This document shows, piece by piece, positions 4,100 to 29,005 of a stretch of 42,129 nucleotides of DNA. A program made the position numbers and the translations under genes. Within the stretch, counting starts at the first letter, position 1; every line of letters begins with the position of its first letter. The notes under the pieces are model-generated. The model was not told where the DNA came from, searched no databases, and saw only the letters and a program-made list of their open reading frames with translations. Origin of the DNA: a virus; the UHGV virus genome UHGV-0179013. The stretch is one strand, 5' to 3'.

Positions 4100-4537
4100 T
4101 TAACGTTGCTCCCATATCCAGTAAAACCTGAATTCCTGCCAGTCCTTCCCCGGTGCCTGATAGCGGATAATGAGATTGAGCCGGTCACGCAGGACGATCC
4201 TGGCAACAGGAATAACCTCGCTGACAACGCCATCAACCTTTAACCAGTTGAGCGCTTCACTCGAGTATTCCTCCGCTTTTTTTGCTACATCCGGGGTCAG
4301 TTTTTTCCGCCGTAGCAGCCACAGCCGGGATCCCAGTTGGGATTCCTCCCCAGAATCCCCCCACCAGCCGCGGCGATCGCTATCCTCATAATCATCGTCA
4401 GCGCGCGCCAGCCTGTCAGTAAACAGGCTGTCCAGTATTGCAGTCTGTAAATCGTTCCCCGTGGTGAGTTCGCCCAGCCCTTTCTGCCAGTCAGCAAACA
4501 TCTCATCCACATTCCAGAATGAAGCGATGTCACTCAT
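4100..4537 (-). CDS. Baseplate wedge protein, GPW/gp25-like (Mu gp46-like)
   Basis: 145 aa, size and position between V-like and J-like genes. Confidence 0.5.
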   Translation of the reverse strand: MSDIASFWNVDEMFADWQKGLGELTTGNDLQTAILDSLFTDRLARADDDYEDSDRRGWWGDSGEESQLGSRLWLLRRKKLTPDVAKKAEEYSSEALNWLKVDGVVSEVIPVARIVLRDRLNLIIRYQAPGKDWQEFRFYWIWEQR

Positions 4538-18302: not shown

Positions 18303-20432
18303 TTATTTCGGCAGGAGTTGCGATATTCGCTTACGTTTGACCGGCGCTGGTTCTTCAATAACCGCACCCGGCAGCTCGTAATTGATTTTTTCTTCCTGTC
18401 CAACTGGCGCTGGCAGGAACTTATCCGGATCGGCTTCGAGGTTGGCGGCCCGGACGTTGAGTTTTAACCCCATATGTTTGAGACCGCACAGCGCGGCATA
18501 GCTGTAAACGAGGCAGTCAAGCGCTTCGTTAGCTCGTCCTGGTATTGCTTCCCAGATACTGTACCGCTGCCCGGAAATGACTTTGTAAACCAGTCGCTCC
18601 GCCAGCAGCTGATTGAAGTACCCGAGATCGCGATCGTCAGGAAAATGCATATAACCCGCAGCGGCGGCGCCAGGTTTGGGTGGCTCAAGATGCAGGCGAC
18701 CGCGTATCACGTCTTTCGCTGAGTTAACCCCCAGAATGACAGGGCGGAAACTGGCTTTGCTTTTCGATGATGGTCGTTTGGTCGGCCAGACAGGATTGCG
18801 TTTGCCTCCCTGTGCAGACTCCCCCTTAATTGCCCAGACACGACGGCCAAGACGCTCTTTGGCGAATTCGTATACCTTCTGCGTATGGTGGCCGCCGGAG
18901 TCCATGCACGTTGCCATGATATTCAGGCCGCGCCCGTCACCACGTCGCCAGATCTGTTTCAGGTATGCATCCAGTCGCTTCCAGGGTTCTTCCGTCTCAA
19001 GGTCACCATAAATAACGTCATGCGCGACCGACCACGATTCTTCATCTCTCCCCCAGCCGGTGATCGTAATTTCGAAGCGATCGTCCTGGGTATCAACTCC
19101 AGCTGTTAACAATGCCACCCCGTCCGGAACGACGGCCGGAAATATTTCCCGGCGCGCCAGCAGAACATCAACAGGGAGCTGTTTCCCATGATTAGGTCGG
19201 TGCGGAAGCCCCATCTGGGTATTCCACCACGCCTGTTCCTTATCCGGATCGCCCTTCGCATCGATATATTTTTTCGCAATATCCGACGGCTTATCTTTTT
19301 GCCAGGGGCTGAAAAGCTTGGATGCCTGGTACCCCACGTGGTGGTTATCGACTGCCTCCTTTCCACAGGAGGGGCAGATTGCGCGATAGACCGCATGCCG
19401 TTCCGACTCTGACCATTGCCAGACCTTTTCAACGCTGCCCTCGTCTGCCGCCCGCCAGGCAAGGTCATAATCCATCAGCGGTGAGTGCCGCTCCCCGCAG
19501 CACTCAAATGGGCGCGTCTGATGCCATCGAATAGTTTGCAGAGCTCTGAGGCGCTGTCCTTCGGACCAGCCACTACCACAGCATTCGCAATAGAGCATCG
19601 CCGATTTAGTCAGGTGTTTATCTCCCTCTTTCGGCCACTGAACGTGTTTGAAAAAGTCGGGGAACTGGCGGTGGCCACAGTGCGGGCAAACCACAGATGC
19701 CCGGCGCTGATCGGAGTCGGCGTAGCTGTCAGCAATGCGGCTCTCATCCTCCACCGTCGGCGAACAGGCGCGTACAGACAGCCAGGTCAGGCCAAATGTC
19801 GCTGTACGCTCTTCGGCCAGCGCAATTGGATCGCCTTCGCGGGTTATCGGGTACTTGTCCACTTCATCCGCCAGCAGGACACGAATCGGACGACGCGCAA
19901 GGTTATCAGGGCTACCAGCACCCGCCAGCGCCAGAAATCCGCCAGTGAACGCCTTGTAAAGAATGGTTTCTTTCGAGCTTTTCTGTTTCGAATCACCGAT
20001 GATTTTACGCAGTACCGGCGTCACCCTTACCAGCGGGCTAATACGCTCTTTCGAAAACTGTTCAGCGGCTTCTTCTTTCGGCTGCAGCAGCAGTATCGGA
20101 CAAGGATCGAGGTGGGCAAAATAGCCAAAAAGGTTTTCCAGCAGTGCTGTCTTCATCAACTGGGTACAGCACATTACAGTGATGATATGAACCCCGGACT
20201 CCGTCGCGGCAAGCATCGGTCCGCGGGCAATTTCTACCGTCGATGTTTCCCAGTTTCCCGAAGTGCTCCCAGCCTCTTTTGCCAGCTTACGATAGTCATC
20301 TGCCCACTGCGGCACACTGATACGCGGCGGGGGTGTCCAGCCTTTGCGGACGCTTAATTCAAGACGCTCAATCTTCTGCCGGGTTAAACTCTGGCTCTCC
20401 GAGGACTGAGATGTGTTTGTGGACATGTTCAA
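18303..20432 (-). CDS. Terminase large subunit, lambda gpA family
   Basis: 709 aa; N-terminal WADDYRKL and C-terminal NEALDCLVYSYAALCGL parallel lambda A (EWADANYYL ... NEALDCFVYALAAL). Confidence 0.9.
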   Translation of the reverse strand: MNMSTNTSQSSESQSLTRQKIERLELSVRKGWTPPPRISVPQWADDYRKLAKEAGSTSGNWETSTVEIARGPMLAATESGVHIITVMCCTQLMKTALLENLFGYFAHLDPCPILLLQPKEEAAEQFSKERISPLVRVTPVLRKIIGDSKQKSSKETILYKAFTGGFLALAGAGSPDNLARRPIRVLLADEVDKYPITREGDPIALAEERTATFGLTWLSVRACSPTVEDESRIADSYADSDQRRASVVCPHCGHRQFPDFFKHVQWPKEGDKHLTKSAMLYCECCGSGWSEGQRLRALQTIRWHQTRPFECCGERHSPLMDYDLAWRAADEGSVEKVWQWSESERHAVYRAICPSCGKEAVDNHHVGYQASKLFSPWQKDKPSDIAKKYIDAKGDPDKEQAWWNTQMGLPHRPNHGKQLPVDVLLARREIFPAVVPDGVALLTAGVDTQDDRFEITITGWGRDEESWSVAHDVIYGDLETEEPWKRLDAYLKQIWRRGDGRGLNIMATCMDSGGHHTQKVYEFAKERLGRRVWAIKGESAQGGKRNPVWPTKRPSSKSKASFRPVILGVNSAKDVIRGRLHLEPPKPGAAAAGYMHFPDDRDLGYFNQLLAERLVYKVISGQRYSIWEAIPGRANEALDCLVYSYAALCGLKHMGLKLNVRAANLEADPDKFLPAPVGQEEKINYELPGAVIEEPAPVKRKRISQLLPK

Positions 20433-20937
20433 TCAGCACCTCTGTCATCCTGTCCGCCGGTACATCCAGATCAGCAGCCATTAGCGGCGCCACCCTGGAC
20501 GGCCAGTTAAGCCAGGCATCACGCTGTTGGCGAAAGGCGTTGAATAAAACCTCCTCGGCTGCTGTCAGCTCAATAAGCTGGCCGCTGTCTTTTTCATACT
20601 GCAGCTTTGCCTGCAGGGCCATGTAATTCTCGCGGATACGTCCCGCTTCCTCTCTCGAAAGATCTGCCCCTTCAGTGAGCATTATCTGGCGGACAGTTTT
20701 ATTGATTTCATCACCGTCATCATCGTTATCGCTAACGACGGGAGTTTTCTTTTTCTTCGCGTTCGAGGCGCGCGGGTCTTTGCCATCGCGGTTTTTCTTC
20801 AATGCCGCATCGCTGGCCTCTACGTCAATCAGGTCTCCGTCCATCACAATGAAGCGCCCGGCTTTAATCCACCGGCCAATTGTTTTGCGATCCACACCTG
20901 AATGTTGTGCGTACTGACTCTGGTTCATCGTGGTCAT
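20368..20937 (-). CDS. Terminase small subunit, lambda Nu1-like, N-terminal HTH
   Basis: 189 aa; N-terminal MNQSQYAQHSGVDRKTIGRWIKAG parallels Nu1 VNKKQLADIFGASIRTIQNWQEQG; upstream TGGGACA repeat array. Confidence 0.7.
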   Translation of the reverse strand: MTTMNQSQYAQHSGVDRKTIGRWIKAGRFIVMDGDLIDVEASDAALKKNRDGKDPRASNAKKKKTPVVSDNDDDGDEINKTVRQIMLTEGADLSREEAGRIRENYMALQAKLQYEKDSGQLIELTAAEEVLFNAFRQQRDAWLNWPSRVAPLMAADLDVPADRMTEVLIEHVHKHISVLGEPEFNPAED

Positions 20938-21084
20938 GGGACATCACCTGGGACATTTTCTGGGGTGGGACATTCGCCTGGGACATTTTCGCAATGTCCC
21001 ACCAGAATGTCCCACTGGAATAAACTGGAATAGCCAGAGCTGGCGAGGTGTCCGTAATGATCGCCAGAGGTGGGACATGGGACA
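20937..21084. repeat. cosB-like repeat array: six direct TGGGACA heptamers and two inverted TGTCCCA copies immediately upstream of the terminase small subunit gene
   Basis: TGGGACA at 20937, 20949, 20966, 20979, 21071, 21078; TGTCCCA at 20995 and 21008; the 14-mer CCTGGGACATTTTC occurs twice. Confidence 0.55.
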
Positions 21085-21227
21085 CAAATCTGAAAGTTGT
21101 AGCTAGGAAAACACCGCGGCGCGCAATGCCCGTACCTTACAAAAGTCTCAGGAAGGACCCATTTTTTTAATGGCTTCGACCATTCGCTCCGACTATGATT
21201 ATTCCTATTCAATACAAGGAGAATGTA

Positions 21228-21731
21228 ATGGGTAACAATATAATCAAAATAACTTTCGTAGCCGCAGTGCTGGCATCACCAATTGCTCATGCCCAGTGGG
21301 TAACTAATACTGAAGATGACCTTTTCTCTGGTGGTAAGAAAGCAATGATGCTTGGCGAGGTTTCATCCGACAATGGCGCCATTGTGTTTGACTGCACTAA
21401 AGAAAAGCTATCGGCGGCATACGTTGAAATGGATAAAAGCACCGAATCACTATCAGAGGTACCAATGGACCTGATAATGAAGGTCGACGGGAATACCGCA
21501 GCGAAGCTCGATGCTACCCTTTCAAGACGTAATGTTCAGAGCCTCCAGATTCAATCGGATGACACGGACCAACTAAAAACAGTGCTTAAGCAGCTTCAGG
21601 GGGCGAAATCCAAAGTGTTAGTTGGTGTGCAAACAAAGGATGGCGGAAACCAGCATTCCATGTCAGCCAATGTTTCTGGATCGACAACTGCAGTAAACAG
21701 CTTCATAAAAGCTTGCGAAATTAGCTTATAA
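21228..21731 (+). CDS. Secreted/periplasmic protein of unknown function (moron); Sec signal peptide
   Basis: ATG at 21228 with AAGGAG RBS; N-terminus MGNNIIKITFVAAVLASPIAHA-QW has n/h/c regions and an AHA cleavage motif; plus strand within a minus-strand late region; AT-rich. Confidence 0.6.
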   Translation: MGNNIIKITFVAAVLASPIAHAQWVTNTEDDLFSGGKKAMMLGEVSSDNGAIVFDCTKEKLSAAYVEMDKSTESLSEVPMDLIMKVDGNTAAKLDATLSRRNVQSLQIQSDDTDQLKTVLKQLQGAKSKVLVGVQTKDGGNQHSMSANVSGSTTAVNSFIKACEISL

Positions 21732-21741
21732 GTTACTGCTT

Positions 21742-22389
21742 TTATTTTGCCGTCCTGATGGCTTCTGCTATCGCCTGATTTAAAGCAGACGGTAGCAGTG
21801 CGTTCGCCATGGTATGGGACCTATCCATATACCCCAGCACTGGAGTCACAGGTAGCGCATCACCAAACCGGATCAAAAGCTTTGGAGAACGCTGTTTGCG
21901 TTTCGGTCTTCGCGTCCCGTTAGCGGAACGTTTGGCCCGTCGCTTCTTAGCTTTCATCGGCTTCTTACGCTGCCAGACAGCGTTAACGCCATCAACCTCA
22001 CCTACGAATACATTTTCCTTTGTTTTAAGCTGTGAGAGCTTATTACGCGGCATGTTGCCGTATTTGTTTAGCTTAACGTTCTTGGGATTTAATAGAGCCT
22101 GGCTATTGAGCTTGTGCTCTCCGCCAAACTCGAATGGTTCCAGATAACCAGCAGCGGTATCGCGGACAAAAACCTTTGCGGTCAGATTGTTCTTTCTTGC
22201 CGCCACCGAACCAACTGATTTAACGGTAAACGGCGTGGGGCTCTCCAGATGTCGTTCGAATGCCGTCTTCTGAGCCAACTCAATCTGGCGTACAACTTTT
22301 GTCATCGCCTGAGCTGTGGCAAACGGGATTTGCTTTTGCAGTTGCTTTAACTGGTTTGATAAATCCTTCAGTGTTGCCATATCAGTCAC
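21742..22389 (-). CDS. Hypothetical phage protein with basic Lys/Arg-rich C-terminal region
   Basis: 215 aa ORF; KKPMKAKKRRAKRSANGTRRPKRKQRSPK tract; function not recognised. Confidence 0.4.
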   Translation of the reverse strand: MTDMATLKDLSNQLKQLQKQIPFATAQAMTKVVRQIELAQKTAFERHLESPTPFTVKSVGSVAARKNNLTAKVFVRDTAAGYLEPFEFGGEHKLNSQALLNPKNVKLNKYGNMPRNKLSQLKTKENVFVGEVDGVNAVWQRKKPMKAKKRRAKRSANGTRRPKRKQRSPKLLIRFGDALPVTPVLGYMDRSHTMANALLPSALNQAIAEAIRTAK

Positions 22390-22557
22390 CTGTATTTACT
22401 GCCTATTCTTCAGCATTATCGATTACAGTTACTGTCTGAATATCAGGATGTTACTTATCGTTGAGTCTGGGTAAGGTAATGGCTCAGCCCGTCAGCGGTG
22501 GGACGTTGGCGTACCAGCCTTGAGAGGAGTGCTGATTGCCTCTTGATAAGGAGACTT

Positions 22558-22827
22558 ATGCAATTTCTTCACAAACGAATGCACCTGAATGCAGGTGATG
22601 TCGTTGTTGTTGACTGCTCGCACCAGTGCAACATCCTTCTCACTACCGACAGTAACTTCAATAGTTATAAAAATAACCGGGGTTTTCATCATCATGGTGG
22701 TGGTGGTTTCTTCGAGAGACTTCCGACCCGGTTGGTTGCGCCTCATATGGGATACTGGAACGTTACGATTGATTTAGGTGGTGGCTCAGGAAATGTCACT
22801 CACAGCATCAGAGTCATTCCAGCATAA
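22558..22827 (+). CDS. Hypothetical small protein (89 aa), plus-strand moron
   Basis: ATG at 22558 preceded by AAGGAG with 8-nt spacing; overlaps antisense ORF 22492-22746, which I consider the shadow. Confidence 0.4.
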   Translation: MQFLHKRMHLNAGDVVVVDCSHQCNILLTTDSNFNSYKNNRGFHHHGGGGFFERLPTRLVAPHMGYWNVTIDLGGGSGNVTHSIRVIPA

Positions 22828-23060: not shown

Positions 23061-23585
23061 TCAGCCAATCAACAATTCTGGCTGCGTCACCTGCATGATG
23101 TGCTCATGCTCCAGTGCCAGGACGCGCTTTTCCTTCTTGCGTTCGTTCATTAAACGACTGCCGATCGTGCCTTTCAGCTTCGAGCGTGTTTCTTTGATGG
23201 CATAGCGGTGCTGCATTTCTTCGCCCATCGCCATGCGTCGGCTAAGTTGTTCGGACATCCAGTTGAATGCTGAGATATAACTCTCTTTGATTGCTGCAGC
23301 AGCTCTCCCAGTGAATCCCATCACAACCATGATCCAGCCATCTCTTGTCAGGCTGTACATCGGGCGAACCTTACCCTGCTCATCGATATAATCAGCCGAC
23401 GCAAAATTGCGTTGGCCAAACTCACTCGAGCAATCGGACTTAACCTGCTCGATTTTCCTGAGCACATCGCCGTGTCGCTTGCCGAAGTACTTGGCAACTT
23501 TTCTGGAAGTGGTGACGACCTCTCCGTTTTTGGCTTGCACCATTTCGCGGAAGTCGAAGGCCGGAATAACTGACGGATTATTCAT
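23061..23585 (-). CDS. Rha-family phage regulatory protein
   Basis: About 174 aa from ATG at 23585 (MNNPSVIPAFDFREMV ... TSRKVAKYFGKRHGDVLRKIEQ), pattern typical of the Rha N-terminal domain. Confidence 0.65.
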   Translation of the reverse strand: MNNPSVIPAFDFREMVQAKNGEVVTTSRKVAKYFGKRHGDVLRKIEQVKSDCSSEFGQRNFASADYIDEQGKVRPMYSLTRDGWIMVVMGFTGRAAAAIKESYISAFNWMSEQLSRRMAMGEEMQHRYAIKETRSKLKGTIGSRLMNERKKEKRVLALEHEHIMQVTQPELLIG

Positions 23586-23730
23586 AGCGTTTTTACCTTT
23601 TAGAAAGATGAGCCTGTTCGCACAGAAAAGCCGCCCCGAGATGGTCGCCACCATATACGGCAGTTCTCAGGCTCAGCTTTCTGAAAGACTCGGGATTGTC
23701 ATGCGCTGCGATGCGCGGTTTACTGCTGGT

Positions 23731-24409: not shown

Positions 24410-24941
24410 CTCTTACGTTCTCTATTTCCCGTATTCCGGAAAAATTGCCATTACCCTTTTCTATCGTTGCCAGCAAAGGTTCAATCCAGAGGACGGCCTG
24501 GCAATACGTCATTGAGCTGGCGGCAGCGGTACTATCATCGGTTGCGTTAGTGTTCCCGGTATCGGGGTGCATTGCGCTGGCACGTAAACGGTACGCGTAT
24601 TTGAGCAGCCCACCAGCGACATCAGCAGGAACAGGCAGATCACAGGTCTTTTCACGTCGGAGAATCTCCCGGTATTCGATGACAGTTTTCTCAGTACCGG
24701 CATCGATCAGCGAGTTAAGGCGGTTGGCGTTCTCTGCTATCTGGTTAAACCGATTGAAGTTGAAAGCCTGTGTAGTTATCACCGTCGCCTGCAGCGCGTT
24801 ATCATTACGTAATACCCGATTCTCACTCTGTTCTGTTTCAAGAGCTGAGCGGCTACGAACCAGTAATACGCTAAGCACTGCAATAATGATTACGACAGCC
24901 ACCAGCAGAACCGCAACAATCGTAATTTTTCTGGGTTTCAT
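24399..24941 (-). CDS. Rz-like i-spanin
   Basis: 180 aa; N-terminal transmembrane segment IVAVLLVAVVIIIAVLSVLLV; start overlaps endolysin stop; embedded lipoprotein ORF in another frame. Confidence 0.7.
   Translation of the reverse strand: MKPRKITIVAVLLVAVVIIIAVLSVLLVRSRSALETEQSENRVLRNDNALQATVITTQAFNFNRFNQIAENANRLNSLIDAGTEKTVIEYREILRREKTCDLPVPADVAGGLLKYAYRLRASAMHPDTGNTNATDDSTAAASSMTYCQAVLWIEPLLATIEKGNGNFSGIREIENVRASQ
24509..24703 (-). CDS. Rz1-like o-spanin lipoprotein embedded within Rz
   Basis: Signal peptide with lipobox LVGC followed by proline-rich mature part (VYVPAQCTPIPGTLTQPMIVPLPPAQ); entirely inside Rz in a different frame. Confidence 0.6.
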   Translation of the reverse strand: MPVLRKLSSNTGRFSDVKRPVICLFLLMSLVGCSNTRTVYVPAQCTPIPGTLTQPMIVPLPPAQ

Positions 24942-25513
24942 CAGAATACCCCCGGAACTGATACCGGAATGCCAGGGTTAAGCGGCCCGAGTCCATCCCC
25001 CAGAACCTGAGGTTTCTCTGCCCACAGGCAAACTTCACGCTCAATCTCACGCCTCGTGATTAAACCCTTCCACTGTTTGTCACCAGCATAGATCCAGCGC
25101 CGCAGTTGTTCGCATGCGCCTTTCGAATCACCCTGGTTGATTTTTCGTAACAGTGTGGAGGTTTTGAAGTTTCCCGCGCCTACGTTATACGCAAATGAGT
25201 ACAGCGCCCCTCTCATCGTTTCGGGGATCGGAGCATTGATATATGGGTTAATCTGTCGGGCGACAATATTCAGGTCTTTATCCAGCAGCGCCTGGCACTC
25301 TGCTTTGGTGTAGGTCTTGCCGAGGATAATATCTTTACCAGTATGGCCCCAGCATACAGTCCACACTCCAACAACATCCCGATAAGGCTGATAGCGTACA
25401 CCTTCAAGGCCATCATTACCCGTTGGGCCAGTAATCAACGCCGCAGCGATAGCAATAGCGCCAGCGGGTATCGCTGCAATAACGCTATTCTTCAGCTTTG
25501 GTGGCATAGCCAT
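24941..25513 (-). CDS. SAR endolysin (T4-lysozyme-type muramidase, phage 21 R21-like)
   Basis: N-terminal signal-anchor-release segment [16 protein letters not shown] followed by [10 protein letters not shown] ... [11 protein letters not shown] catalytic region; pattern closely parallels phage 21 endolysin as I recall it. Confidence 0.85.
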
Positions 25514-25763
25514 TGCGCCGATCCTCCCGTTCTTTCCAGCGGAAATACCAGTTCACTGCACACGTAATAACAGTGCATGCGATACCGACAATAATTGCCC
25601 AGTCGCTCAGGCTTAACCCTGCAATTCTGTCGGCCAACATCCAGGACACCTCTTTTGCTGTTTTAGCTGTTTCGGCATATGCCTTCGCTGATACACCGCA
25701 GCCGGTCAGCGTGGTTCCTGTTCCATATGAAAGTCTGCTGTAAATGGTGCTCATTCTGGTCAT
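25485..25763 (-). CDS. Pinholin (phage 21 S21-like) with dual-start motif
   Basis: Two in-frame ATGs three codons apart (M-T-R-M) behind a GAGGTGAGG RBS; transmembrane segment [25 protein letters not shown] then charged tail REDRR, as in S21. Confidence 0.65.
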
Positions 25764-25870
25764 AGCCTCACCTCGCATAGTTAGCGGGTGCTGTTTGAGT
25801 AAGGGATCAGGCTTCACGGGCTGGATTTATCAACAAAGCACGCAGTGAGTGATACCCGTGAGCCTGAAAT

Positions 25871-26092: not shown

Positions 26093-26127
26093 CAATGAAT
26101 AACATGCTAATAAGCAAGGATAAGGCG

Positions 26128-27213
26128 ATGGCGAGTGTAGACTTTAGCTTTGAAGGACTTCTAATAGAGAGAATTATCGCACACAGAGTTTTTCCTAAAA
26201 GTGCTGATAAAACCTTAACTCCCCCAAAAACCAGCAAATTTTTAATGGCATTCAAACAAGATGCATTAGATGCTTTTCAGGTGAGGATTACTGAGGCCTT
26301 AGCAAGTAAATCTCATGGAATTGAAATGTCTATTGGTGGTGTTGGTGATGATTGTTTTTTGAATCTGTCGGCTTCAACGTTTTCTAATGATACAGAGCAC
26401 TTCATCAAGGTTACAGAACGACTTGCAAGTAAACTTAGCGAGGCACAATACAACAGTTCTGCCCCTGGTGGGATATTGGCTGTATTGTCAGGGCGCGTAG
26501 GAAATGACTCACTTCCATTCCTTGCGGTAATAAAAGCTGAAACCCAAAATGGTTTTAGAACTATTGAAAATGATGAGCAGGTGACAATGGAGTTTATTGC
26601 TGAGCTTCTTTTAACTCCAGCGCAACGTTTTTATAAGATTGGTTTTATAGTCCAAACTATTGCTTTACCTCCTGATAGTGATGGTAATTATAGCAGCTCA
26701 TCTTATCGTGCATTTTTGTTTGACCATTTAATGACATCGACAGAAACAAAAAACGCCGCCGGATATTTCTACTCTCGATTTTTAGATATGGATATAAGCA
26801 AATCATCAAAAAAACTTACTCAAGATTTTTTTGAGAATACTAGGGACTTCATTAATACCGCACAAATAGAGGAAAGTAATAAACTTGCGCTGCATGAGGC
26901 TTTAAGAAGTGAAATGCGCTCAAGAAAGACCACATTAAGCACTGCGGATTTCGCAGAAACCAACCTCCCAGAAGAAATGCAGGGGGAGTATTTGGATTTT
27001 ATGAAGAACAAAAGCTTCCCTGCTGCCGCAGTAACTAAAGACAATGGTTATATTGAATCCAAATTAAAAATAAGAAGCAAGCTCGTATTCTCCAATGATG
27101 TATGGGTTTCCGTACCGCCAGATCAATTAAAAAATCTTGTGGAAATTATCCCGTCGGATGATAATGAATCAACGATTTTGAAAATAAAAGGGCGACTTAA
27201 AAGTCAACAATAA
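26128..27213 (+). CDS. Cassette gene A: 361-aa protein with YejK/NdpA (NA37 nucleoid-associated protein)-like features
   Basis: ATG at 26128 behind AAGGATAAGG RBS (ORF-track start 26095 lacks an RBS). Segments SAPGGILAVLSGRVGNDSLPFLAVIKAE and C-terminal ESTILKIKGR parallel E. coli YejK ([40 protein letters not shown]). Very AT-rich; stop overlaps gene B start (TAATG). Confidence 0.45.
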   Translation: MASVDFSFEGLLIERIIAHRVFPKSADKTLTPPKTSKFLMAFKQDALDAFQVRITEALASKSHGIEMSIGGVGDDCFLNLSASTFSNDTEHFIKVTERLASKLSEAQYNSSAPGGILAVLSGRVGNDSLPFLAVIKAETQNGFRTIENDEQVTMEFIAELLLTPAQRFYKIGFIVQTIALPPDSDGNYSSSSYRAFLFDHLMTSTETKNAAGYFYSRFLDMDISKSSKKLTQDFFENTRDFINTAQIEESNKLALHEALRSEMRSRKTTLSTADFAETNLPEEMQGEYLDFMKNKSFPAAAVTKDNGYIESKLKIRSKLVFSNDVWVSVPPDQLKNLVEIIPSDDNESTILKIKGRLKSQQ

Positions 27214-28205
27214 TGGATATCAATGAGTTCCGTGAGTTTTTACAGGCAAACCAGGATGCTTACGCAGCTTGGGGGCAGTTTGTGTCTGAAGAAATTTACA
27301 GTACTCTTTGTAGCTCTCTAGGGGATGACAAAGCCAAGCTCTTTCTAAAGATCCACTCAGAACCAAGACTAAAAAGTATAGCCTCGGCATTAGGAAAGGT
27401 CAGCCGTAAAGGATATGACAATCCAGTAGTGCAAATGACTGATTTGATTGGTGTACGCTTTGTAGTTCTACTCTCTGTTGAAATCAGAGCTATCAGTGAA
27501 ATAATTGAAAACTGTGATAAATGGGATGCGACTGTTTCTAAAGACTATTTATCAGAGATTGATGTTAACCCCAAAATTTTTGACTATCAATCGCGGCATT
27601 ATGAGGTAAGGCCTAAAGCTCAATTCGATTACTGTGGACAAAGCATAACGCCTGAAATGTGCTGCGAAGTTCAAGTTAGAACATTGCTTCAGCATGCCTA
27701 TGCTGAATTAGTCCATGATAGCGTCTACAAGCCTTCCGGTGATGTACCAAAATCTGCTGAAAGGCAAATAGCGCGTAGCATGGCCTTAATGGAAACAACG
27801 GATGATCTTTTTTGCAAAACAATGGAAATCTTGGCTGACAATAGCAAAGAGAGAAATGAGCTTTTAGAATTTCTTTCAGGATATTACGCAGAAAAAATAG
27901 GGAGGCAGTATATTGATGAAGATTTGCATGTTAACTTCTCCGTCATTGACACCTTTAAAGACCACATTGACGACAACTTACCAAATAAAATACACACACT
28001 TCTCAGTGAGAAAAAATACATCTCTGCACGGATAATTAATAGAGTTGAATACAATCCTCTATTCACTCAACCATGTATATTATTTGTGTACTGGTTAGCA
28101 AGCCAGATAGACTCAGGGGAAATGCTTTCAACATGGCCCCTGCCGGGCAATATTAGTGGGCTGGAGATGGTGCTAAGTGATTTAGGGAAAAGTATTTCTC
28201 GTTAG
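27213..28205 (+). CDS. Cassette gene B: RelA/SpoT-type nucleotide pyrophosphokinase (synthetase-fold) domain protein with about 150-aa C-terminal extension of unknown function; candidate toxSAS-like effector
   Basis: Synthetase motifs in order: RLKSIASALGKVSRK, DLIGVRFVV, DYQSRHYEV, EVQVRTLLQHAYAELVHDSVYK; compare RelQ RVKSPESIIEKLERK, DIAGLRVV, GYRSYHLVV, EIQIRTLAMNFWATIEHSLNYK. Translationally coupled to gene A. Confidence 0.7.
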   Translation: MDINEFREFLQANQDAYAAWGQFVSEEIYSTLCSSLGDDKAKLFLKIHSEPRLKSIASALGKVSRKGYDNPVVQMTDLIGVRFVVLLSVEIRAISEIIENCDKWDATVSKDYLSEIDVNPKIFDYQSRHYEVRPKAQFDYCGQSITPEMCCEVQVRTLLQHAYAELVHDSVYKPSGDVPKSAERQIARSMALMETTDDLFCKTMEILADNSKERNELLEFLSGYYAEKIGRQYIDEDLHVNFSVIDTFKDHIDDNLPNKIHTLLSEKKYISARIINRVEYNPLFTQPCILFVYWLASQIDSGEMLSTWPLPGNISGLEMVLSDLGKSISR

Positions 28206-28244: not shown

Positions 28245-28673
28245 TTAAAAGTCTAACATGGCAATGCATCCATCTACGAACCCCATTGCCGTCTGTAGTT
28301 CCTTTCTTATAGTCCCATCAGAGCACTTTCGCTTTTTAGCAATGGATCTCAACGAGATACCGATAACGAAGTGGGCAACAATCAATTCATATTCATCAGG
28401 CTTATATTTACGTAAGCGAGCCACACATCCATCAATCATGATTCCCTCATCGTCATCACACTGAAGTCGTGATTTCTTACCATGAGGTAAAAGTCCCTTG
28501 AATCCAGCTGCAATGGGTTGCCAGTCGACACCACTACTATCGGCTGCCGCCCATGCTCCCCATAAATCCATCACTTCATACATATCACGCATTGCAATTT
28601 CTCTTTCGTCTTCTCTGCTTAAAGGGTTAGCTCCCTGAGGGCTGAAATGTTTGAGTGATGCTTCCAGTTTCAT
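28245..28673 (-). CDS. Q-like late-gene antitermination protein
   Basis: About 142 aa from ATG at 28673; C-terminal region LIVAHFVIGISLRSIAKKRKCSDGTIRKELQTAMGFVDGCIAM resembles the region-4-like HTH of phage 82/21-type Q proteins; last gene of the early operon after replication genes. Confidence 0.55.
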   Translation of the reverse strand: MKLEASLKHFSPQGANPLSREDEREIAMRDMYEVMDLWGAWAAADSSGVDWQPIAAGFKGLLPHGKKSRLQCDDDEGIMIDGCVARLRKYKPDEYELIVAHFVIGISLRSIAKKRKCSDGTIRKELQTAMGFVDGCIAMLDF

Positions 28674-29005
28674 TGGATAGTGCCTCCCTTCTCGGCAGTG
28701 CCAAACCAGCCAGGATGCGCCCACTGAATATCGGTAACTTTATGGCCTTTCCCCCATAGCGATATCGAACGCATTGCAACGTAGTGCATAAATATTTTTT
28801 CCCGCTCAAGCCATTCATCCTCAGGCTTATCTTCAAGAAACTCATCGATTGCATCAGCAATAAGGCCAAAGCATTCGGGATAGTCGCTATGACTGATATC
28901 TATGTCTCGTACAGCATCCTGGAGTTCCATGAAGCGCTTTTGGGTGAATAAATAAGACATTTCGTGAATTAGACGATCCATTATTGGTTCCTTAAGCTTT
29001 TGCAT
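28670..29005 (-). CDS. Hypothetical phage protein (nin-region position)
   Basis: About 111 aa from ATG at 29005 (longer ORF-track start would overlap the DnaB-like gene). Confidence 0.35.
   Translation of the reverse strand: MQKLKEPIMDRLIHEMSYLFTQKRFMELQDAVRDIDISHSDYPECFGLIADAIDEFLEDKPEDEWLEREKIFMHYVAMRSISLWGKGHKVTDIQWAHPGWFGTAEKGGTIQ

Follow-up and report, generated by a model that had tools for sequence, protein, structure and literature searches.

Lambda bor and lom and HK97 gene 15 are extra genes for exported or envelope proteins, present in some and absent from other members of a group of related phages. Bor is a 97-aa lipoprotein, and in lambda its gene is flanked by the lysis genes and cos and runs antisense to the late genes. 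P1 Sim and T4 Sp are small Sec-exported proteins of the resident phage that act in the periplasm against incoming DNA delivery. Extra genes with a promoter and a terminator of their own, a different GC content and a present/absent distribution among relatives are morons by the Juhala/Hendrix definition, as summarised in PMC3594210. Bor has a role in serum resistance, and HK97 gene 15 is located between the chaperone and tape measure genes (PMC3594210). Here, we describe a further gene of this type in UHGV virus genome UHGV-0179013, on the plus strand at positions 21228–21731, where it encodes a 167-aa protein beside a putative packaging site. The window, by which we mean the whole 42,129-nt stretch and not the 167-aa gene alone, is the prophage of a temperate myovirus whose head and terminase are lambda-type and whose contractile tail is Mu-type. 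We conclude that the locus is an ordinary moron of a known kind, carrying an uncharacterised but catalogued protein family. As a general description, a lysogen-type moron that encodes a soluble periplasmic protein of an uncharacterised family, with a predicted fold that may resemble that of Bartonella IalB, is very probably correct on the sequence data, and it is much better supported than any specific role.

The gene is part of a moron cassette of 581 bp (21162–21742, plus strand), where related prophages contain just 15 nt. The cassette is missing from three close relatives among E. coli prophages (L002, L003 and L004), and in these the gene that flanks it on the right in the window, encoding a 215-aa protein, lies directly beside the cos region. 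In blastn alignments, window positions 20800–21161 matched L002 and L003 up to positions 4262 and 3262, respectively, and the window from 21743 onward matched them again from 4278 and 3278 onward, leaving 15 nt between the two aligned blocks where the window has 581 bp. L004 was collinear with the window on both sides of the cassette, with the alignment resuming at window position 21749. The identity of the flanks to the cassette-free prophages was 98.6% on the cos side and 73–79% on the other. An earlier reading of the sequence without database searches (the sequence-only reading) had the gene inserted between the cos-like region and the minus-strand late genes, and the comparison with L002, L003 and L004 bears this out as a precise indel. 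The site is filled in 22 of 5,426 complete E. coli genomes. Located between the last gene of the late operon and cos, the segment constitutes a single-gene cassette, or moron, that is self-contained and horizontally mobile.

The proposed proximity to the packaging site was likewise upheld. TerS (20368–20937, minus strand) and a gpA-type TerL (18303–20432, minus strand) are encoded immediately to the left; this packaging module is lambda-type. The left flank of the cassette is a putative cos/terminase-binding region (20937–21161) with seven TGGGACAT repeats in both orientations. These account for seven of the eight copies of TGGGACAT in the window and are clustered at 20937–21084 as four direct, two inverted and one direct copy; approximately 1.3 copies would be expected in the window by chance, and none of 100 shuffled sequences reached eight. 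The repeats, which fall within the 200 nt upstream of terS, probably serve the small terminase as cosB-like binding sites. On the right flank, the 215-aa gene (21742–22389, minus strand) is convergent with the cassette. In the orientation of the phage, the open reading frame (ORF) of the moron is therefore antisense, with the end of the late region on one side and cos on the other, the same kind of slot as that occupied by bor in lambda.

The coding sequence (504 nt, plus strand) is an intact ORF for the 167-aa precursor plus the stop codon, at the coordinates assigned to it when it was read from the sequence alone, and the strong ribosome-binding site claimed for it was found as AAGGAG at 21216–21221, leaving 6 nt to the ATG. 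Some gene callers chose an alternative start, the ATG at 21195, which yields a 178-aa protein (P0001 and P0007). We set the start at 21228 and consider the longer form unlikely, because the ATG at 21195 falls inside a conserved putative -10 hexamer (TATGAT) and the N-terminal extension is not conserved. The description of the gene as AT-rich can be kept in part: its GC content (44.8%; 44.6% at third codon positions) is below that of terL (55.4%), terS (52.6%), the 215-aa gene (48.9%) and the adjacent head and terminase genes in general (53–55%), but the difference from the whole window (50.0%) is modest and places the ORF at the 12.6th percentile among 504-nt segments of the stretch. The GC content of the complete cassette is 43.5%. 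Between the window copy and a Salmonella copy, the proportion of nonsynonymous differences (pN) was 0.20 and that of synonymous differences (pS) 0.68, giving a dN/dS of approximately 0.14. Against more distant copies, synonymous sites were saturated and pN was still 0.22–0.34. The ORF was unbroken in all copies examined, and these values show a real gene under purifying selection.

The 66-nt leader (21162–21227, plus strand) moves together with the ORF. It starts with a T-tract (21162–21168), followed by a putative promoter (21170–21199) made up of ATGGCT (21170–21175), an 18-nt spacer and TATGAT (21194–21199). We aligned the leaders of 12 diverged copies, whose proteins are 60–99% identical. 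In this alignment, the bases T55, A56, T57, A59 and T60 (TATnAT) are invariant or near-invariant and the neighbouring bases vary. The T-tract and an AT(G/A)GC motif located 18 nt before TATnAT are also kept, and the AAGG core of the Shine-Dalgarno (SD) sequence is invariant. The -35-like hexamer is weak, ATGGCT in the window and ATGACT in the Salmonella copy. Across copies with 60–99% identity, the -10 hexamer, the SD sequence, the signal peptide and both cysteines of the protein are retained. At the other end of the cassette, the 3′ spacer (21732–21742) between the converging stop codons is very short and lacks the terminator hairpin that other copies have. In the Salmonella copy (L012), the stop codon is followed by a 13-bp hairpin and a T-run (fold z -4.3, equalled in 0 of 200 shuffles), and a copy from Mu-like prophages is also strongly structured downstream (z -5.6). 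The element type thus carries a terminator, which the window copy has lost, and with its putative promoter it corresponds to the definition of a moron given above (PMC3594210). Classical morons likewise have their own leader and a different GC content, as here; their own terminator is a feature shared by other copies of this element and not by the window copy. The interpretation as a moron, already present in the sequence-only reading, is thus sustained by presence or absence in collinear prophages, a strand opposite to that of the late genes, a lower GC content and a leader of its own with a conserved -10 hexamer.

The protein was predicted to have a signal peptide of the Sec/signal-peptidase-I type (residues 1–22, encoded at 21228–21293, plus strand). 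Its N-terminus reads MGNNIIKITFVAAVLASPIAHA|QW, with a single lysine (K7) in the n-region, a hydrophobic core whose best 11-residue Kyte-Doolittle window scores 2.5, and A-H-A at positions -3 to -1 of the predicted cleavage site (AHA|QW). No lipobox and no twin-arginine motif were found, and residues 1–55 are devoid of cysteine. This call is based on rule-based checks of the sequence. The same features extend across the family, in agreement with the cleavage after AHA proposed earlier: among 137 full-length relatives, alanine occupies position -3 in 93 and position -1 in 117, the n-region contains K or R in 130, and a lipobox cysteine at the cleavage site occurs in none. In the AlphaFold2 model, residues 1–21 have a predicted local distance difference test score (pLDDT) below 50, and the folded domain starts at residue 24. 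The mature protein would comprise 145 aa (15.5 kDa, pI of approximately 4.95) with two cysteines, Cys56 and Cys163, and no membrane-like segment was found in it.

Two other identities were considered for the product. A lipoprotein was ruled out by the absence of a lipobox; the envelope lipoprotein morons (Bor/Iss, Cor and Llp) carry a lipobox cysteine at +1, which is absent from the 167-aa protein and its 137 relatives. A membrane protein or an outer-membrane barrel was ruled out because a hydrophobic segment is absent and the predicted fold is a sandwich that includes two helices. In this the product, predicted to be soluble and without a lipobox or membrane segment, differs from Lom, an outer-membrane barrel, and from gp15, an inner-membrane protein, and the gene shows no sequence similarity to bor, lom or HK97 gene 15. 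The 167-aa product is most likely periplasmic and soluble, neither a lipoprotein nor a membrane protein, as judged by these predicted features.

The protein had been described as belonging to no known family, which has to be qualified. It matched PHROG 19473 over its entire length (residues 1–167 against profile positions 1–167 of 167; E 5.6e-98, 326.6 bits), and the family is therefore already catalogued, although with the annotation 'unknown function', and RefSeq names all copies 'hypothetical protein'. On the other hand, scans against Pfam, NCBIfam and PADLOC gave no model that was significant or at its curated cut-off; the best PADLOC score (E 0.005) was to an unrelated model of a Type I specificity subunit. 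A word-indexed search returned 33 clusters, all annotated as hypothetical protein, with Enterobacter, Citrobacter, Salmonella, E. coli, Klebsiella aerogenes, Leminorella and Dryocola among the named organisms. An exhaustive profile search extended this to 269 clusters at E<=1e-3, of which 127 were at E<=1e-10, and a scan of genome contigs with a narrower alignment retrieved four species genomes only. Most relatives are approximately 165 aa long; in a few, the domain is repeated in tandem two or three times or is followed by a C-terminal extension unrelated to it. Among 98 diverse members, W24 and C56 are invariant and D31, G133 and C163 near-invariant; D87 is near-invariant in a 65-member alignment. 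Two relatives matched the VasI model of the type VI secretion system at E 0.17, a relation that we treated as noise. Literature searches for IalB with phage, IalB-like proteins, IalB with MotY, and morons of Mu-like prophages yielded nothing on the PHROG 19473 family.

Using a 26-sequence alignment, AlphaFold2 predicted with good confidence a compact alpha/beta sandwich (pLDDT 85.5; predicted template modelling score 0.78) with the topology of seven strands, a helix, two strands and a helix, in which a Cys56-Cys163 disulfide would anchor the C-terminal helix to the sheet. Foldseek searches against the PDB gave nothing below E 0.001. In BFVD, which holds predicted structures of viral proteins, six matches fell below E 0.001, the top three with a template modelling (TM) score of about 0.5; the named ones, all uncharacterised proteins, belong to Klebsiella phage KP15, Escherichia phage RB16, Vibrio phage VH7D and Serratia phage MTx. 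IalB (PF06776; PDB 3DTD) is similar in size to the 167-aa protein and shares 13% sequence identity with it. Sequence searches did not connect the two. The 167-aa protein had no match to PF06776 even at E<=1, and 3DTD was not among the PDB sequences recovered with either of two alignments used as profiles. One of 65 relatives matched PF06776 at a sub-threshold E of 0.002; no IalB match appeared among the top 25 families listed for 98 members or in 30 further proteins scanned singly. Remote homology to IalB is unproven, given that the sub-threshold relative was not recovered as a bridge in three further scans. We therefore describe the fold as IalB-like and, for lack of a sequence-level link, do not place the protein in the IalB family. 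The second structure compared, 8z5n_A ('component of sodium-driven polar flagellar motor'), shares 10% sequence identity with the 167-aa protein. We assume that this chain is MotY and that the match covers its N-terminal domain. MotY has an additional OmpA-like domain and works with MotX, and nothing ties the phage protein to flagella.

Relatives of the gene were found in several genomic settings. The same cos slot, in the same convergent orientation, is used in Salmonella and K. aerogenes prophages, and 46 of the 59 IMG/VR viral contigs that carry a relative have it in this slot. In E. coli Mu-like prophages, which are inserted at many different chromosomal sites, the relative follows com-mom as the final gene, at a distance of 188 nt from the right end of Mu type. 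Lambdoid prophages encode a 183-aa paralog between an S24-type repressor and a strong promoter-like site (TTGACA-18-TATATT) that precedes antA-kilR-gam-recT and is probably the early-left promoter. This slot, which corresponds to the rex/sie position of lambda and P22, is shared with a restriction-modification pair or HicAB. The 183-aa paralog had no tblastn match in 50,697 phage isolate genomes and three weak matches only in plasmids. In a different type of phage, the relative lies between the lysis genes and HNH/Terminase_4, and in yet another (L080) it is located between the tape measure and DNA-circularisation protein genes of a Mu-type tail operon, which recalls the placement of HK97 gene 15. 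Stand-alone chromosomal copies occur in Leminorella, Serratia and Edaphovirga. By these placements, relatives fill at least five accessory slots of temperate phages. They have no conserved partner gene, and therefore the protein presumably works alone.

One of these settings retains sequence from beyond the cassette, and a second may do so. In the HNH and Terminase_4 type of phage (IMG/VR contigs L065 and L069, 4878–5618, compared with window 21115–21834), the shared DNA exceeds the cassette and includes 46 nt of window-type cos-side sequence as well as the 3′ end of the 215-aa gene over approximately 94 nt. These flanks are the footprint of a transfer of the cassette from a window-type phage. 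Separately, in an E. coli Mu-like prophage (L006, 6505–6692), a 33-nt stretch downstream of the Mu-type copy resembles the 3′ end of the 215-aa gene (TCTGCTATCGC...). This stretch may be another transfer footprint, the resemblance being marginal (p of approximately 0.004 in one of five comparisons). In every comparison of cos slots, the moron was the most diverged gene of its block; in one example, identity was 98% for TerL, 82% for the 215-aa gene and 74% for the 167-aa gene.

We consider it reasonably likely that, as a whole, the locus is explained by a mobile cassette that encodes a periplasmic protein and serves to protect the lysogen. The gene would be transcribed on its own from a weak sigma-70 promoter within the cassette (ATGGCT-18-TATGAT), antisense to the late operon, and with such a promoter the lysogen would produce the protein during repression of the phage. 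The acidic 15.5-kDa product would be exported by Sec, cut after AHA and oxidised to form one disulfide; it would stay soluble in the periplasm and act there alone, by binding an envelope component. As to the role itself, lysogenic conversion, superinfection exclusion and virulence had been named as candidates in the sequence-only reading, and we treat all of them as hypotheses. We suggest tentatively that it is envelope protection of the lysogen in the form of superinfection exclusion at the periplasmic step of DNA delivery. A protective role is suggested, on circumstantial grounds, because the 183-aa paralog sits in an immunity slot of the rex/sie type next to restriction-modification and toxin-antitoxin genes, and because the product is predicted to be periplasmic, the gene is autonomous and it is the most diverged of its block. 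The mode of action proposed, by analogy, is that of P1 Sim and T4 Sp, to which the protein has no sequence relationship as judged by tblastn against 50,697 phage genomes. A wider form of this proposal, which we regard as rather unlikely, is that the family represents an unrecognised class of single-protein periplasmic factors for exclusion or envelope defence, with an IalB-like fold, which would have arisen from an old chromosomal family of periplasmic proteins and spread as a promoter-carrying cassette through at least five temperate-phage architectures in Enterobacterales.

Several observations weigh against lysogen protection. The gene is rare (22 + 5 + 3 of the 5,426 complete E. coli genomes, ~0.5%), and tblastn of the 167-aa protein against the 50,697 phage isolate genomes gave no match. 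No homology to a known exclusion or defence protein was found, PADLOC-DB 2.0 returning only noise at E >= 0.005. Enterobacterial singletons also occur outside obvious prophages, and distant relatives occupy core chromosomal sites (recA|gene|alaS and ruvX|gene|DUF808); such chromosomal relatives suggest a general envelope function that is not specific to phages. Mosaic recombination, and not an arms race, could explain why the gene is more diverged than its flanks. A strict consensus scan detected no sigma-70 promoter, for which reason we call the candidate promoter putative and non-consensus. Finally, the window copy is without a terminator hairpin (z -0.8, and a terminator scan of the region was empty), and therefore its transcripts would read antisense into the late genes.

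Among the other explanations, the one that survives best is a conversion factor for host fitness or virulence, in which the periplasmic protein strengthens or remodels the envelope (with regard to serum, stress or host-cell interaction) and has no part in phage-phage conflict, resembling lambda Bor in position and Bartonella IalB in fold. A Bor-like position, antisense to late transcription in the interval from the lysis genes to cos, is in line with this, as are the distant relatives that are chromosomal genes in core neighbourhoods and the stand-alone copies in Leminorella and Serratia. However, the similarity to IalB is at the level of the fold only, the 167-aa protein having no PF06776 match, and the molecular function of IalB is itself unknown. 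The carriers are, moreover, mainly environmental or commensal isolates (tableware, frogs, river water and poultry), and prevalence is very low. We judge a conversion factor to be an unlikely alternative to lysogen protection. Still less probable is an accessory function in the lytic cycle, as a late exported protein that acts during or after lysis and might tune the endolysin or spanin in the periplasm or, in the manner of T5 Llp, save progeny from being lost by masking receptors on debris. A lysis cassette is indeed nearby (holin at 25485–25817, lysozyme at 24941–25513), and in some phages (L080) the homolog is co-oriented within the tail operon, where it would be co-transcribed late, but in the window and in 46 IMG/VR contigs the gene and the late operon are on opposite strands, the gene is missing from close relatives in which the region is otherwise complete, and it also occurs in the immunity region and at non-phage chromosomal sites. 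That the gene is a decaying passenger, a hitch-hiking remnant that is silent or expressed at an irrelevant level, is very improbable: the lost terminator hairpin, the lack of a consensus promoter and the rarity of the gene in E. coli would fit such a remnant, but the ORF is intact in all copies examined, with a dN/dS of approximately 0.14, and the -10 hexamer, SD sequence, signal peptide and both cysteines have been conserved among copies as little as 60% and up to 99% identical.

Beyond the cassette, a near-identical prophage of E. coli EC2641 also has structural genes for gpW, a portal, an S49 protease, a decoration protein and the major capsid protein, together with Mu-type tail genes for the sheath, the tube, a DNA-circularisation protein and baseplate J/gp46/gp48-like proteins. 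No sequenced phage isolate was similar to this structural module at the DNA level. The 215-aa protein matched phrog_1924 ('minor tail protein', E 1e-61) and no Pfam or NCBIfam family, and it has a very basic stretch, KKPMKAKKRRAKRSANGTRRPKRKQRSPK. Its gene is the last one before cos in every related prophage examined and adjoins cos in the cassette-free relatives; this is an unusual place for a tail-type gene, ahead of both cos and the terminase. Further to the right of it are a Rha gene, the Rz, lysozyme and holin genes of the lysis cassette (the holin gene on the minus strand) and the antiterminator Q gene (28245–28724, minus strand), the latter located to the right of the lysis genes.

Other plus-strand ORFs were observed in this part of the window. 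Between the antiterminator Q and holin genes, in the classical Q-S moron slot, two of them (26095–28205, plus strand) encode a 372-aa NA37/YejK-like nucleoid-associated protein (PF04245, E 1.9e-12) and a 330-aa protein with a RelA/SpoT domain (PF04607, E 1.6e-16). By its domains, the pair looks like a toxin or defence pair of the small-alarmone-synthetase type. Approximately 100 nt past the 215-aa gene there is an additional plus-strand ORF (22498–22827), whose EC2641 counterpart is annotated as DUF1883 domain-containing, and which may be a second small moron of that region. Judging by gene lists, the window and the otherwise 99%-identical EC2641 prophage (L001) apparently differ to the right of position ~22500, where the window has the Rha gene (23061–23654) and EC2641 has YnfU, GnsA/GnsB, CspG and YmcF together with a truncated region by napB.

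It is well known that lysogenic conversion and phage exclusion can stem from morons for exported proteins, and to these the cassette described here adds one clean example that is easy to test; its significance is so far limited. This one small gene is autonomous, prophages with and without it form natural pairs, and a confident structural model of the protein is at hand. If the protein turned out to act in exclusion, a soluble periplasmic type would join a group of factors that are mostly membrane proteins and lipoproteins, and the protein would provide a first functional handle on an IalB-like fold.

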